DNA of 20,826 nucleotides from contig CAYLZE010000092.1 of assembly GCA_964388035.1 (NCBI GenBank), positions 1-20,826 on the forward strand, in the 5' to 3' direction. Shown piece after piece: positions 16,308-20,792 of the stretch. The position numbers and the translations under genes were made by a program. The notes below the pieces were generated by a model, which was not told the origin of the DNA, did not search any database, and saw only the letters and a list, made by a program, of their open reading frames with translations. Positions within the stretch are counted from its first letter, which is position 1; every line of letters starts with the position of its first letter. This stretch comes from an uncultured archaeon (GTDB lineage Archaea > Asgardarchaeota > Lokiarchaeia > Sigyniarchaeales > SOKP01).

Positions 16308-16586
16308 ATGAGTTTGGACAAATGGCTTAAAAAGGATGAATCTGAAGCCAAAAAAGCAGAGAATCAAAAGAATACAAAATCTGAAAAGAAGGTTCAATCA
16401 AAGAAAAAGGACCCTATTCAAAAAAAACCTGAAAAGGAAGAACCCGGTGCTCCAAAATTAGAAAAAAAAGTTTTTTATTGTAAATCATGCAAGTTTGAAA
16501 AAACAATAATGTCGAAAAATATAAAAGAGAAACGTAAATGTCCAAAATGCAAGAAATTCATGATTTTAAAAAAAGGGGCTAAATAA
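16308..16586 (+). CDS. Small basic protein with a C-terminal zinc ribbon
   Basis: 92 aa. N-terminal MSLDKWL, a Lys/Glu-rich linker, then CKSC...CPKC. GGGAG lies upstream of the ATG. Confidence 0.8.
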   Translation: MSLDKWLKKDESEAKKAENQKNTKSEKKVQSKKKDPIQKKPEKEEPGAPKLEKKVFYCKSCKFEKTIMSKNIKEKRKCPKCKKFMILKKGAK

Positions 16587-16595
16587 AATTCGAAT

Positions 16596-16841
16596 TTACC
16601 CTTTTATTTCTTCTCTTGTTTTTGCCTGAGAGAGATCCAGAACGCTTTGACAGTTGGGACAAATATTTTTCTTCTTCGAATACTTTAAAATCAAGTAAAC
16701 GAAAAAACCCAAGCCAAAGGTTAGAAAAATCATGAAGCATAAAAGTTCATGATACATGTGCTGAAAGTTTTTTCTTCCAGGAATAACCCAATCTTCACAG
16801 GTTGGACAATAAATCCATTTCTTCTCCACGGTAAAGATCAC
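16596..16841 (-). CDS. LITAF-like membrane-anchored zinc-ribbon protein
   Basis: 81 aa with a GTG start (start uncertain). CPTC (12-15) and CPNC (61-64) flank a ~20 aa hydrophobic segment, LLCFMIFLTFGLGFFVYLIL. Confidence 0.75.
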   Translation of the reverse strand: MIFTVEKKWIYCPTCEDWVIPGRKNFQHMYHELLCFMIFLTFGLGFFVYLILKYSKKKNICPNCQSVLDLSQAKTREEIKG

Positions 16842-17390: not shown

Positions 17391-18389
17391 ATGCCAACTT
17401 GCAACCATTGCGGACGGGAAGTGGGAGAAGTTTATTATTGTAAGGAGTGTGGTTATAATTATTGCAACCTGCATATTAAACCCGAAGATCATGATTGTAA
17501 CATTATCCGTGAATATTCTCAAAATTCTTCGGTTTCTACGAACTTGCCTGCAAATGGAGTACAAGGACGAGGAGAAGGAATTTCCTCCGAAATGCAAGAA
17601 GTTATTGAAACAAACATGACAGAGAAGCGGGGGACAATCGATGGATCGTACACGTGGTATAAGGAAGAATCGTATATTCCTGAAAATGCTTTTGATCCAA
17701 ATTCAGGAGTGGAATTTAAAGGGATTTTATTTGCACATAAATCGGAAATCACTCATTTCATTGTTGGGGCTCTTTTAATTTTTCTAATAGGAGCACTGGG
17801 ATTTTATGATCAAACCTTAATAGATTTTGGGTTGGGTTGGGCCATTTTTCTTTTGGCAGGTTTTTACACCTCAGCATTTTTATTTCATGAATTAGGACAT
17901 CGTCAAGTGGCTCGTCATTATGGTCTTCAAACTAAATTCCGATTGCTCACTTATGGAATAGCGCTAACTTTAATCAGCTTATTTTTAGGAATCGGTTCCC
18001 TATTCGCCATCATCCCACCCCTTCCTACGTTAGCTCTTCCTGGAGCGGTGGTGGTCTTAGGATTAGAGAAAATTGATAAAAAAACGGGACTTTGTAAAGC
18101 AGCAGGTCCTGCGGTTAATTTAATATATGGTTTTATCTTATTGATCATATCTTTTATAATATCGAAGGAGTTCTACCCATTAAACATGTTTGTGGGGTAT
18201 GCGGCAGCGATGAATTTTATTCTGGGGAGCTTTAACTTGATTCCACTAGGGATATTAGACGGGTATAATATTTTTAAATGGAATAAAACGTATTATTTCA
18301 TCTTAATATCTTCCTTGGTAATACTCTTAGTCATTACACTTGCTAATGTCTATGCTCCTATTGAATTCTCTAATTACTACCCTAAATAA
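17391..18389 (+). CDS. AN1-type zinc finger fused to a site-2 protease (M50 family) intramembrane metalloprotease
   Basis: N-terminal Cx2C-x9-Cx2C-x4-Cx2H-x5-HxC; several TM segments; intact HELGH (H166), AAGPAVN and FNLIPLGILDG motifs. Confidence 0.9.
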   Translation: MPTCNHCGREVGEVYYCKECGYNYCNLHIKPEDHDCNIIREYSQNSSVSTNLPANGVQGRGEGISSEMQEVIETNMTEKRGTIDGSYTWYKEESYIPENAFDPNSGVEFKGILFAHKSEITHFIVGALLIFLIGALGFYDQTLIDFGLGWAIFLLAGFYTSAFLFHELGHRQVARHYGLQTKFRLLTYGIALTLISLFLGIGSLFAIIPPLPTLALPGAVVVLGLEKIDKKTGLCKAAGPAVNLIYGFILLIISFIISKEFYPLNMFVGYAAAMNFILGSFNLIPLGILDGYNIFKWNKTYYFILISSLVILLVITLANVYAPIEFSNYYPK

Positions 18390-18547: not shown

Positions 18548-19480
18548 ATGCCTAATTGCGATTATTGTCAAGAAGAGATTGGGTATCTCCCTTTTAGATG
18601 TAAATATTGTGGAGGAATTTATTGTAAGAATCATCGTTTACCCGAAAATCATGAATGCACCTTTCAAATGCTCCAAAAGCCCATTGAAACTCAAAAACCT
18701 AAACCTCTTTATCCCCAGAGTTCTCAAAAAAGTGAAGAGATCACCAAGTTCGAGAAAGCCGAATTACGGAGACAAAAGAGATATGCTAAACAACAAGAAA
18801 AACAACGAGCAAGAGCAAGAAGTCCATATGCTGGTGTTCGTGCGCCACCACAATCTTATCCCTTTCAGAGAAGGAATGTTTCGATATACCTCTTATTAGT
18901 CATATTCATAACTTCGATAGTAGCTTTAGTTTTTCCCAATTATCTCTGCTTGAGCAGTTACACGATTTTAAATTTTTACGTGTGGACTTTAATAACCTCA
19001 CTATTCGTAAGTTATTCATCTAGTTATATTGGCATCTTATTTCTCTTAATCTTAGTCTTGATTTTTTATAGTATTATCAAGAATTTAGAACTTACCTTCG
19101 GAACGAGATTTTTATTAACCCTTTATTTGGTCTGCGCATTAGGATCGGCTATCGTTTACTTTTTAATTTGGTTCGGGTTAAGTTACATTACCAACCCTTA
19201 TGATATTCCCGTTGCTGGTTTGGCCATTGGAGCTTTAATGGGCATGATATGTTTCATGATTTATTTTAACATGAATCAAGAGATGACGTTTTTATTCTTC
19301 TTCATTCCCATCCGAATGCGGGGAAAGATCTTAATATGGTTATTGATCCTAATTAATTTAATCCCGGGACTTCTCTTTGCGCTTTTCAGTCCACTTTATT
19401 TAGCCATTTACATTCCGGATTTGGGAGGGATATTGGCATCTTACTTGGTTTTTAAATTGAAATTTCAAATTAGAGTATAG
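18548..19480 (+). CDS. AN1-type zinc finger fused to a rhomboid-fold membrane domain, predicted catalytically inactive
   Basis: N-terminal Cx2C-x10-Cx2C-x4-Cx2H-x5-HxC. Rhomboid landmarks WTLITSLF, LE...G..FL..YL and FFFIPIRM are present, but GxSG is replaced by GLAIG and HLGG by DLGG. Confidence 0.82.
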   Translation: MPNCDYCQEEIGYLPFRCKYCGGIYCKNHRLPENHECTFQMLQKPIETQKPKPLYPQSSQKSEEITKFEKAELRRQKRYAKQQEKQRARARSPYAGVRAPPQSYPFQRRNVSIYLLLVIFITSIVALVFPNYLCLSSYTILNFYVWTLITSLFVSYSSSYIGILFLLILVLIFYSIIKNLELTFGTRFLLTLYLVCALGSAIVYFLIWFGLSYITNPYDIPVAGLAIGALMGMICFMIYFNMNQEMTFLFFFIPIRMRGKILIWLLILINLIPGLLFALFSPLYLAIYIPDLGGILASYLVFKLKFQIRV

Positions 19481-19627: not shown

Positions 19628-20305
19628 ATGACCGAAAAAAAGGGATCTTCCATCGTTATTGAATTGAATGAAGATTTAATTCAAAACAATGAAGTATTAG
19701 CAAAAAAAAATCGTGAACTTTTGATAGGAAAAAAAATAAGGTTTTTTGAAATCGTTGGGGCGATTGGAGCCGGCAAAACGGCCATCCTGGAAAAAATAAC
19801 GGAACAATTATCCTCTAAATATAAAATTCTGGTAATAAATGGAGATGTGACTACCCGGATTGATGCAGATCGAATTGAACAACACGGTGCCACCACCATC
19901 CAAATAAACACGGGCCGGGAATGTGCACTTAATTCTTACCATATCTCCCAAGTAGTTAAGAATATAGACTTGGACGAATTTTCAGGCGGAATTCTATTCG
20001 TGGAAAACGTGGGAAATTTAATTTGTCCCTCCGATTTTATATTAGGAGCAGAGAAAAGAATCATAGTTGTTTCGATTACTGAGGGGGAATGGGTGGTTAA
20101 AAAACACCCATTATTATTTAAAATGTCGGATATCGCAATAATTAATAAAATTGATTTGAATGATATCCTTGAGATAAATATTGAGAATATGGTTGACGAT
20201 GCTAGAAATATCAATCCCAATTTGAGCATTTTCACGGTTAGCGCACTAACGGGAGAAGGTTTATCAGAAGTCATCAATGCATTGGATATAGACAATACTC
20301 ATTAA
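19628..20305 (+). CDS. hypB: HypB-like nickel-insertion GTPase (G3E family)
   Basis: GAIGAGKT, DADRI, INTGREC, ENVGNLICP, SITEG...KHP, NKID and SALTGEG. No His-rich N-terminus. Confidence 0.9.
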   Translation: MTEKKGSSIVIELNEDLIQNNEVLAKKNRELLIGKKIRFFEIVGAIGAGKTAILEKITEQLSSKYKILVINGDVTTRIDADRIEQHGATTIQINTGRECALNSYHISQVVKNIDLDEFSGGILFVENVGNLICPSDFILGAEKRIIVVSITEGEWVVKKHPLLFKMSDIAIINKIDLNDILEINIENMVDDARNINPNLSIFTVSALTGEGLSEVINALDIDNTH

Positions 20306-20369: not shown

Positions 20370-20792
20370 TTGTATCGTCAGTATAATACGGAATTGCAGT
20401 CCTTAATAGATAAAATTGTAAAGGTTTATGGAGATAATGAAAAATTCTTCGTGGGGCAATTAAAAGGTGTCTCGGAGGAGTCCAACCTTATCCTCGTTAA
20501 TGCTAAAAACGAAAAAAATAAGGTGTTTCCAAAAATATTAATTAGCAAGACCTTTTTTAGTTATGTGACACTAGAAGATGAACCTTTCCCAATGAAGGCA
20601 TTAGCAGATCGCATCTCGACGATCTTCTCTAAAGGACACGTGCAATATTTAGAGTCAGAAAACGTGATTTCCATTTTAAATGGCAAAATTATCGTGGATG
20701 CCGTGAATGGAGTTCGCGGAGAGGGTCCTTCTGCGGAAAGAGTAAAAAAGATATATGATCAATTCAAGATAGACCTTGAAGAATCTTCTTGA
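20370..20792 (+). CDS. Augmented Sm-like archaeal protein (SmAP3 type: Sm fold plus C-terminal domain)
   Basis: ELQSLIDKIVKV...GQLKGV...NLILVNA Sm fold, followed by a C-terminal domain ending GVRGEGPSAERVKKIYDQF. TTG start. Confidence 0.85.
   Translation: MYRQYNTELQSLIDKIVKVYGDNEKFFVGQLKGVSEESNLILVNAKNEKNKVFPKILISKTFFSYVTLEDEPFPMKALADRISTIFSKGHVQYLESENVISILNGKIIVDAVNGVRGEGPSAERVKKIYDQFKIDLEESS

Follow-up and report, generated by a model that had tools for sequence, protein, structure and literature searches.

What does a rhomboid do once it has lost the residues with which rhomboid proteases cut? This question is raised by a gene in a 20,826-nucleotide stretch of DNA (contig CAYLZE010000092.1 of GenBank assembly GCA_964388035.1; hereafter the window) from an uncultured Asgard archaeon of the class Lokiarchaeia, order Sigyniarchaeales. 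Its product of 310 amino acids joins an AN1 zinc finger, through a basic helical linker, to a membrane domain of rhomboid fold (coordinates are collected in Table 1), an arrangement known among proteases from haloarchaea, where Haloferax volcanii RhoII carries it (PMC4343526). A preliminary description, made from the letters of the window, had proposed that both catalytic residues are lost and that the protein is a Derlin- or iRhom-like pseudoprotease. Our analysis indicates that the gene product is very probably a rhomboid pseudoprotease, that the archaeal family to which it belongs is real and conserved and apparently has not been described before, and, because its gene is linked to that of an intact AN1-fused site-2 protease (S2P), that this conserved Loki-type membrane protein probably assists membrane-protein proteolysis without itself cutting; a kinship to Derlins or iRhoms was not borne out.

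The open reading frame (ORF) is intact, and the landmarks on which the preliminary description leaned are present (WTLITSLF from residue 146, NLELTFG from residue 179), as are the changes that it reported at the active site. The fourth transmembrane helix (TM4) reads VAGLAIGALMG, beginning with V222 at position 19,211, where active rhomboids have GxSG; TM6 reads PDLGG in place of AHLGG; and the HxxxN motif of TM2 is gone. Alignment of the family profile with active archaeal rhomboids places I227 on the Ser of GASG and D291 on the His of AHLGG, and F165 and L169 on the His and Asn of TM2. Among the residues expected of an active S54 enzyme, the protein lacks the GxSG Ser, the TM6 His, the TM2 HxxxN and the WR motif of loop L1, in which W146 is invariant and 111 of the 120 homologues have Thr next to it. 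Structural keystones are kept, namely W146, T150, E181, G185 and the small-residue packing motifs of TM4 and TM6. Residues 108–310 contain no His whatever, so that another Ser/His dyad, which the preliminary description had named as grounds for refutation, is impossible within the membrane domain. The same genome encodes a canonical active rhomboid of 192 amino acids, without an AN1 finger and with WR, H..H...N, GASG and AH..G in place, which is the backup enzyme.

The fold of the membrane domain is that of a rhomboid. Pfam recognizes the finger clearly (zf-AN1, residues 4–39, E 5.7e-11, 42.8 bits) and the Rhomboid domain marginally (residues 145–275, 22.7 bits against a gathering cut-off of 22.6), and no family matched in an NCBIfam search of the protein. 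An AlphaFold2 model built on 32 homologues, with a mean predicted local distance difference test score (pLDDT) of 81.2, values of 81–96 over blocks of the membrane domain and a predicted TM-score of 0.63, runs from the finger through a disordered stretch and a long basic helix (residues 62–95) into the helical membrane domain; there, TM1 (111–128) and TM2 (160–184) are separated by about 30 residues, and TM6 (290–307) ends about three residues short of the end of the protein at 310. Foldseek returned GlpG as the best match of this model with a probability of 1.00 and a weak E-value (0.025), and in a sequence-profile search of the PDB the AN1 domains alone matched, with a GlpG homologue at E 3.2; because both of these E-values are weak, the fold assignment rests on VIA-align and on hhalign, which aligned the family profile with active archaeal rhomboids at a probability of 99.1–99.5% (E 3.9e-19 to 2.9e-22). 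By structure and by profile alike, the six-helix core of the rhomboid superfamily (the Pfam clan of PF01694) is present, in agreement with the preliminary assignment.

Loss of the catalytic apparatus is a property of a whole family rather than of one gene. Among length-matched proteins, 257 homologues were found at E <= 1e-3, and columns were counted over the best 120 of these, which are 44–65% identical and nearly all about 300 amino acids long. At the TM6 His position these proteins have Asp in 117 cases and Glu, Pro and Asn in one each, and His in none; at the TM2 positions, F165 is found in 116 of 120, and residue 169 is Leu, Ile or Met. The catalytic Ser position is more varied (Ser 89, Thr 14, Phe 7, Tyr 7, Ile 2, Ala 1). 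Loss of the predicted general base and oxyanion-hole residues is what defines the family as a whole, and the window protein is, to judge from these columns, one of a minority that is also missing the Ser. The earlier statement that both catalytic residues are lost thus stands for the window protein and, with regard to the His, for all 120 close homologues, and fails with regard to the Ser, the loss of which is confined to a minority sublineage. A wider view came from an exhaustive phmmer search of 1.84 billion cluster representatives, which gave 889 matches. Among those spanning the domain, 12 clusters (at 50% identity) retain the complete catalytic set (H, N, S, H) and about 70 have neither the His nor the Asn of TM2 and no His at the TM6 position, with Ser, Trp, Asn, Gly, Ile, Thr, Tyr and others at the Ser position; no intermediates between the two groups were present among these matches.

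The family is also well conserved. Mean column identity is 58%, and numerous membrane residues are invariant (W146, F153, G162, L166, E181, F184, G185, G224, A226, G259, P273 and L292–G294). In closer genome pairs, the ratio of nonsynonymous to synonymous divergence (dN/dS, Nei-Gojobori) is 0.17–0.53 for the dead rhomboid and 0.08–0.25 for the neighbouring M50 gene; values well below 1 indicate that the gene is held by purifying selection, somewhat less strict than that on its neighbour. The preliminary suggestion of a selected, non-catalytic role rather than a sequencing error is upheld by this wide conservation, by the invariant residues and by dN/dS. Named members of the family are proteins from metagenome-assembled genomes of Promethearchaeota or Lokiarchaeota, and several public records (P0051, P0088, P0111, P0127, P0147) bear the title 'rhomboid family intramembrane serine protease'; such titles are probably over-annotations from a weak Pfam match, as the catalytic His is missing from every member examined. 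The nearest clusters in a protein atlas, which serve as leads only, are weakly rhomboid-annotated ones from Promethearchaeota, Chlamydiota and Myxococcota.

Where the family occurs points to when the loss took place. A search with the single protein found the membrane domain in 134 of 400 genomes of the phylum, and a profile built from 17 diverse dead domains found it in 120 of 134 genomes of taxonomic family f1 and in 14 of 14 of family f3, both belonging to the window's order; families f2 and f4 of the same order, from which few genomes of 63–88% completeness were sampled, gave no match. At E <= 1e-5 this profile misses the active rhomboid that the window genome encodes. Its matches in other Asgard families are weaker (E 1e-6 to 1e-23), and all ten of the out-of-order loci inspected, which come from eight families, are active rhomboids without an AN1 finger; the dead family was not found outside the window's order among these ten Asgard matches. 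The f3 orthologues, some of them in closed genomes of 4.3–6.0 Mb, are about 30% identical and are dead as well, with Trp, Asn or Gly at the Ser position and Gln, Ser or Asn at the His position. An unrooted maximum-likelihood tree (LG+C20 PMSF) was built from the membrane domains of 49 dead and 16 active proteins; in it, a single branch with 100/98 support divides the two groups. These data fit one loss in the ancestor of the window's Lokiarchaeia-type order, followed by diversification under purifying selection. Active archaeal rhomboids, to which profile homology reaches 99% and among which phmmer also finds AN1-bearing forms, retain the TM2 H...N, the GASG Ser and the AHLGG His that the Loki family has lost, and the RhoII-type proteases have the same N-terminal AN1 finger and six-helix core, RhoII being compared by architecture only. 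The profile and phmmer matches point firmly to descent of the family from archaeal rhomboid intramembrane serine proteases.

The AN1 finger, for its part, is intact, and the fusion of AN1 and rhomboid reported in the preliminary description is sound. All eight ligands are present (C4, C7, C18, C21, C26, H29, H35, C37) in the spacing C-x2-C-x9-12-C-x2-C-x4-C-x2-H-x5-H-x-C of PF01428, and they are invariant or at least 90% conserved across homologues. AN1 domains in the PDB match the finger at E-values down to 1e-8, the best being those of a plant SAP protein and of yeast Cuz1; in phmmer, the finger matches the Cuz1 AN1 domain (5ij4) at E 1.3e-8, with YLPF.C aligned on FLPF.C. L14, P15 and F16 are invariant in the family and lie where members of the Cuz1/AIRAP subfamily have the LDFLP motif, and the similarity marks the finger of the dead rhomboid as one of Cuz1-like type. 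In Cuz1 itself, the finger is required for proteasome binding, and the surface-exposed LDFLP patch has been proposed to mediate a further, unknown interaction (PMC5035049). The LPF patch is absent from the AN1 finger of the neighbouring S2P. Because the linker that follows the finger is rich in Lys and Arg, the positive-inside rule would place the N-terminal finger in the cytosol. The window genome (5.47 Mb, 96.7% complete) contains exactly two AN1 fingers, one on the dead rhomboid and the other on its M50 neighbour.

That neighbour, the gene immediately upstream, encodes an AN1 finger (zf-AN1, E 1.6e-6) fused to an M50 peptidase (Peptidase_M50, E 2.7e-9), the HELGH and NLIPLGILDG motifs of which are intact and invariant in 17 orthologues. 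A juxtamembrane block (W89, P97–E98, A100–F101, S105–G106) is likewise invariant in these orthologues. The arrangement AN1-M50, AN1-dead rhomboid, HypB-like GTPase, Lsm is repeated across 29 f1 loci, which represent seven genera; at 25 of them the M50 gene adjoins the dead rhomboid, and the sequences of the other four end before its place. In f3, an M50 gene lies within about 0.5–1.3 kb at six of eight loci. Five of the six have an inverted gene order and an M50 protein without an AN1 finger, and the sixth (L036) has the f1 order with AN1-M50; of the remaining two, the sequence at L039 ends about 0.9 kb beyond the gene, and no M50 gene was seen at L040. The genome of a cultured Loki-type archaeon has an f3-type orthologue beside an M50 gene. 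The dead rhomboid and the M50 S2P are linked, in other words, across a rearrangement of gene order, a tie to an S2P gene that distinguishes the Loki family from archaeal AN1-rhomboid proteases. A complex prediction for M50 residues 80–332 and dead rhomboid residues 105–310 from matched-locus alignments scored 0.00, an outcome that gives no answer and counts neither way. The two genes also show discordant divergence: between the same genome pairs (L006 and L009, L007 and L017, and others like them), synonymous divergence (dS) is about 0.18 in the dead rhomboid and about 1.0–1.1 in the M50 gene, which suggests that recombination or allele exchange may have occurred within the pair. The M50 proteins of L009, L014 and L017 are missing a stretch of 14 residues.

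Taken together, we favour with moderate confidence an explanation in which the protein is a non-cutting rhomboid scaffold with AN1 docking that works jointly with the AN1-S2P. Its ability to cut would be gone; the rhomboid scaffold would bind or locally destabilize transmembrane segments, as has been proposed in general for members of the rhomboid superfamily (review PMC12615303); the cytosolic AN1 finger would dock a soluble partner; and the protein would act together with the adjacent AN1-fused S2P as a substrate receptor, adaptor or regulator, by a logic comparable to that of iRhom with ADAM17, YqgP with FtsH and Derlin with Hrd1-p97. The step in which the dead rhomboid works with the neighbouring S2P is itself tentative, and we put its chances at slightly under even.

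Several observations weigh against this explanation. The f1 block around the pair is conserved as a whole, including S-adenosylmethionine synthetase, a Zn-ribbon ORF, the HypB-like GTPase and Lsm, so that adjacency is weaker evidence of joint function than it seems. The neighbouring M50 protein lacks an AN1 finger in most f3 genomes, and some genomes encode additional dead AN1-rhomboid paralogues that have no M50 neighbour. The tree is unrooted and its dead and active groups were set by the very feature being counted, and related genomes are non-independent samples. Finally, 74% of close homologues keep the Ser beside the conserved Asp, and a non-canonical activity in these Ser-bearing copies is formally conceivable. 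As to the paralogues themselves (loci L041–L045, L087 and L088), some genomes of the same family have one or two of them, 273–315 amino acids long and about 30% identical.

The most serious competitor takes up some of these same points: the dead rhomboid would act independently of the S2P, as a membrane-protein chaperone or scaffold or as a stress-responsive AN1 adaptor, and its adjacency to the protease would be inherited order. The synteny of the whole f1 neighbourhood and the existence of stand-alone paralogues are consistent with this proposal, as are the 158 bp that separate the two genes in the window, which contain T-runs and AT-rich, promoter-like sequence. It is, however, at odds with the persistence of the linkage in the sister family despite inverted order, and with the finding that both genes carry AN1 fingers, the sole ones in the genome; we consider an independent role unlikely, while granting it real weight.

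A joint action with the S2P would have parallels, each of them partial. iRhoms (RHBDF1/2) regulate the metalloprotease ADAM17; the putative partner here is an intramembrane M50 protease and not an ADAM, and it is gene linkage that suggests the pairing. A prokaryotic case is YqgP (GluP) of Bacillus subtilis, a rhomboid adaptor of the FtsH protease (PMC7231995), in which a cytosolic domain and a membrane core pass substrates to another protease; unlike the Loki family, YqgP is an active enzyme, and the domain that it has in the cytosol is not an AN1 finger. UBAC2, Dsc2 and RHBDD3, which are rhomboid pseudoproteases with a cytosolic ubiquitin-associated (UBA) domain (review PMC12615303), follow the same logic, a dead rhomboid core being combined with a small domain in the cytosol that belongs to the ubiquitin-proteasome system. 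The likeness to the Loki family is one of design; the family has AN1 in place of UBA, at the N- rather than the C-terminus, and a prokaryotic, independent origin.

A bolder version of the joint-action proposal would make the pair a prokaryotic, independently evolved counterpart of endoplasmic reticulum (ER)-associated degradation (ERAD), linked to the proteasome or Cdc48. The dead rhomboid would recognize and loosen faulty membrane proteins, at the membrane the AN1 fingers would serve as docking sites for Cdc48, the archaeal proteasome or a ubiquitin-like system, and the S2P, the proteasome or both would then destroy the client. We regard this version as improbable; were it true, it would amount to membrane-protein quality control in archaeal relatives of eukaryotes, and the pathway could be tested in cultured Loki strains.

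That the protein is instead an archaeal Derlin proper, homologous or ancestral to the eukaryotic dislocation factors of ERAD, and would extract membrane proteins from the bilayer with Cdc48 and the proteasome, is very unlikely. The two share a fold and the loss of catalytic residues, the W of WR and the TM6 motif G294xxxS298 are kept, and the highest structure-based identity (VIA-align) is to human Derlin-1, at 21% over 174–179 residues against 13–16% for GlpG, a difference that could arise simply because Derlin-1 and the Loki protein both have hydrophobic residues where polar catalytic ones stood. The AN1 finger is also similar to that of Cuz1, which associates with the proteasome and Cdc48, and both Cdc48 and the 20S proteasome exist in archaea (PMC13328587). 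Profile comparison, which the preliminary description had named as a check, gave no such relation. Derlin-1 sequences were fished from a protein database with a 68-residue bait, which had a 100% identical match, and only the database-returned sequences entered the profile (59 sequences, vertebrate Derlin-1 only). Against this vertebrate Derlin-1 profile, hhalign found no relation of the Loki family (P 0.56–0.85), in contrast to the E-values of 4e-19 to 3e-22 with active archaeal rhomboids; the same profile matched a wider dead set weakly (P 0.004–0.009) and active rhomboids about as weakly (P 0.012–0.036). At E <= 10, the Pfam model DER1 (PF04511) matched none of 32 members, 22 of which matched Rhomboid. 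A similarity seen by eye between NREMTF..FFIP of the family and NRDMIV..FWFG of Derlin-1 was dropped in view of the hhalign P of 0.56.

The protein also stops too soon after TM6 to bear a C-terminal SHP/p97-binding tail, and none is present. Together with the restriction to a single Asgard order, outside which the ten inspected matches were all active rhomboids, and with the failed profile test, this makes a specific Derlin relationship unlikely. What Derlins (Der1, Dfm1, Derlin-1/2/3) and the Loki family may share is a role in handling membrane proteins for degradation; the Loki family differs in having Thr for the R of WR, an N-terminal AN1 finger and no SHP tail, and in its confinement to one order. 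Features of iRhoms are missing too, there being no iRhom homology domain in the short gap between TM1 and TM2 and no long cytosolic N-terminal region of iRhom type, the N-terminus consisting of the AN1 finger and linker. The label 'Derlin/iRhom-like' is therefore unsupported as a statement of kinship and would hold only as a functional analogy, and the family is best read as the product of a loss that took place independently, and in this lineage only, among archaeal rhomboid proteases.

Could the family still be enzymatic, by way of a Ser-Asp or Thr-Asp pair, with the Ile227 copy of the window an inactive outlier? Ser-Asp dyads occur in hydrolases such as cPLA2 and patatin, and 103 of the 120 close homologues have Ser or Thr by the near-invariant Asp291. 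Against this, the nucleophile position is Phe, Tyr, Ile or Ala in 17 of the 120 and Trp, Asn, Gly, Ile, Tyr or others in most distant clusters; Asp291 is exchanged for Gln, Ser, Asn or Glu in the sister family; the oxyanion-hole His and Asn of TM2 are hydrophobic family-wide; and the window protein itself has Ile and no His. Such an enzyme is highly improbable. Least probable of all, to the point of being negligible, is the reading that the gene is decaying, or is an error of assembly or sequencing, and has no selected function, for which the marginal Pfam rhomboid score and three to four changed catalytic positions might speak, against an intact frame, the 257 homologues, presence in 134 of 148 genomes of the two families, many invariant residues, a dN/dS well below 1 and the recurrence of identical substitutions in independent assemblies.

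In the literature searched, rhomboid pseudoproteases such as Derlins, iRhoms and UBAC2 are presented as innovations of eukaryotes that serve in ER quality control and in trafficking, and we found there no description of a prokaryotic rhomboid pseudoprotease or of an Asgard AN1-rhomboid. The present family indicates that the same evolutionary move was made independently in Lokiarchaeia-type Asgard archaea, in which a rhomboid was inactivated, its scaffold kept and a domain of the ubiquitin-proteasome world joined to it, and that the family then spread into the clusters described above with its S2P linkage retained. It offers a simpler system in which to ask what a non-cutting rhomboid fold does, would provide a first functional context for archaeal AN1 fingers, and corrects public annotations that name these proteins serine proteases; an archaeal origin of Derlins it does not support.

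Table 1. Positions of the pseudoprotease gene, its parts and its neighbours in the window, counted from the first letter.
Feature	Positions	Strand	Basis
Whole gene: AN1 zinc finger, basic helical linker and predicted dead rhomboid-fold domain, 310 aa	18548..19480	+	ORF list, Pfam
AN1 zinc finger, residues 4–39	18557..18664	+	Pfam match, ligand conservation, phmmer to Cuz1 AN1
Lys/Arg-rich linker, single long predicted helix, residues 62–95	18731..18832	+	AlphaFold2 secondary structure, sequence
Rhomboid-fold membrane domain, six helices, residues 108–310	18869..19477	+	
TM2 His/Asn positions (oxyanion-hole region), Phe165 and Leu169	19040..19054	+	Profile alignment, 120-homologue columns
Catalytic Ser position of GxSG, Ile227 (ATT)	19226..19228	+	Profile alignment, column counts
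TM6 catalytic His position, Asp291 (GAT)	19418..19420	+	Profile alignment, column counts
Eight-T run, starting 19 nt past the stop codon	19499..19506	+	Sequence only
Upstream partner: AN1 finger fused to intact M50 site-2 metalloprotease	17391..18389	+	Pfam, motifs
HypB/CobW-type GTPase, PF02492 E 7.7e-18	19628-20305	+	Pfam
Lsm protein with Lsm_C domain, PF14894 E 1.4e-8	20370-20792	+	Pfam
81-aa ORF, LITAF-like zinc ribbon, PF10601 E 1.7e-7, 31.7 bits against a cut-off of 23.8	16596-16841	-	Pfam
92-aa lysine-rich ORF with C-terminal CxxC...CxxC zinc ribbon, weak Pfam matches	16308-16586	+	Sequence

Oligo-T runs mark transcription ends in archaea, and the T run downstream of the gene is a possible end of this kind. 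The GTPase and Lsm genes keep their place after the pair at most f1 loci, and Lsm lies within 2–3 kb in f3; no functional link of either to the dead rhomboid and M50 pair was evident. Upstream, the two CxxC pairs of the LITAF-like protein flank a hydrophobic helix; the LITAF-like domain is known mainly from eukaryotes. A small ORF resembling the 92-residue zinc-ribbon one also lies near the pair at L036 (7902-8216).

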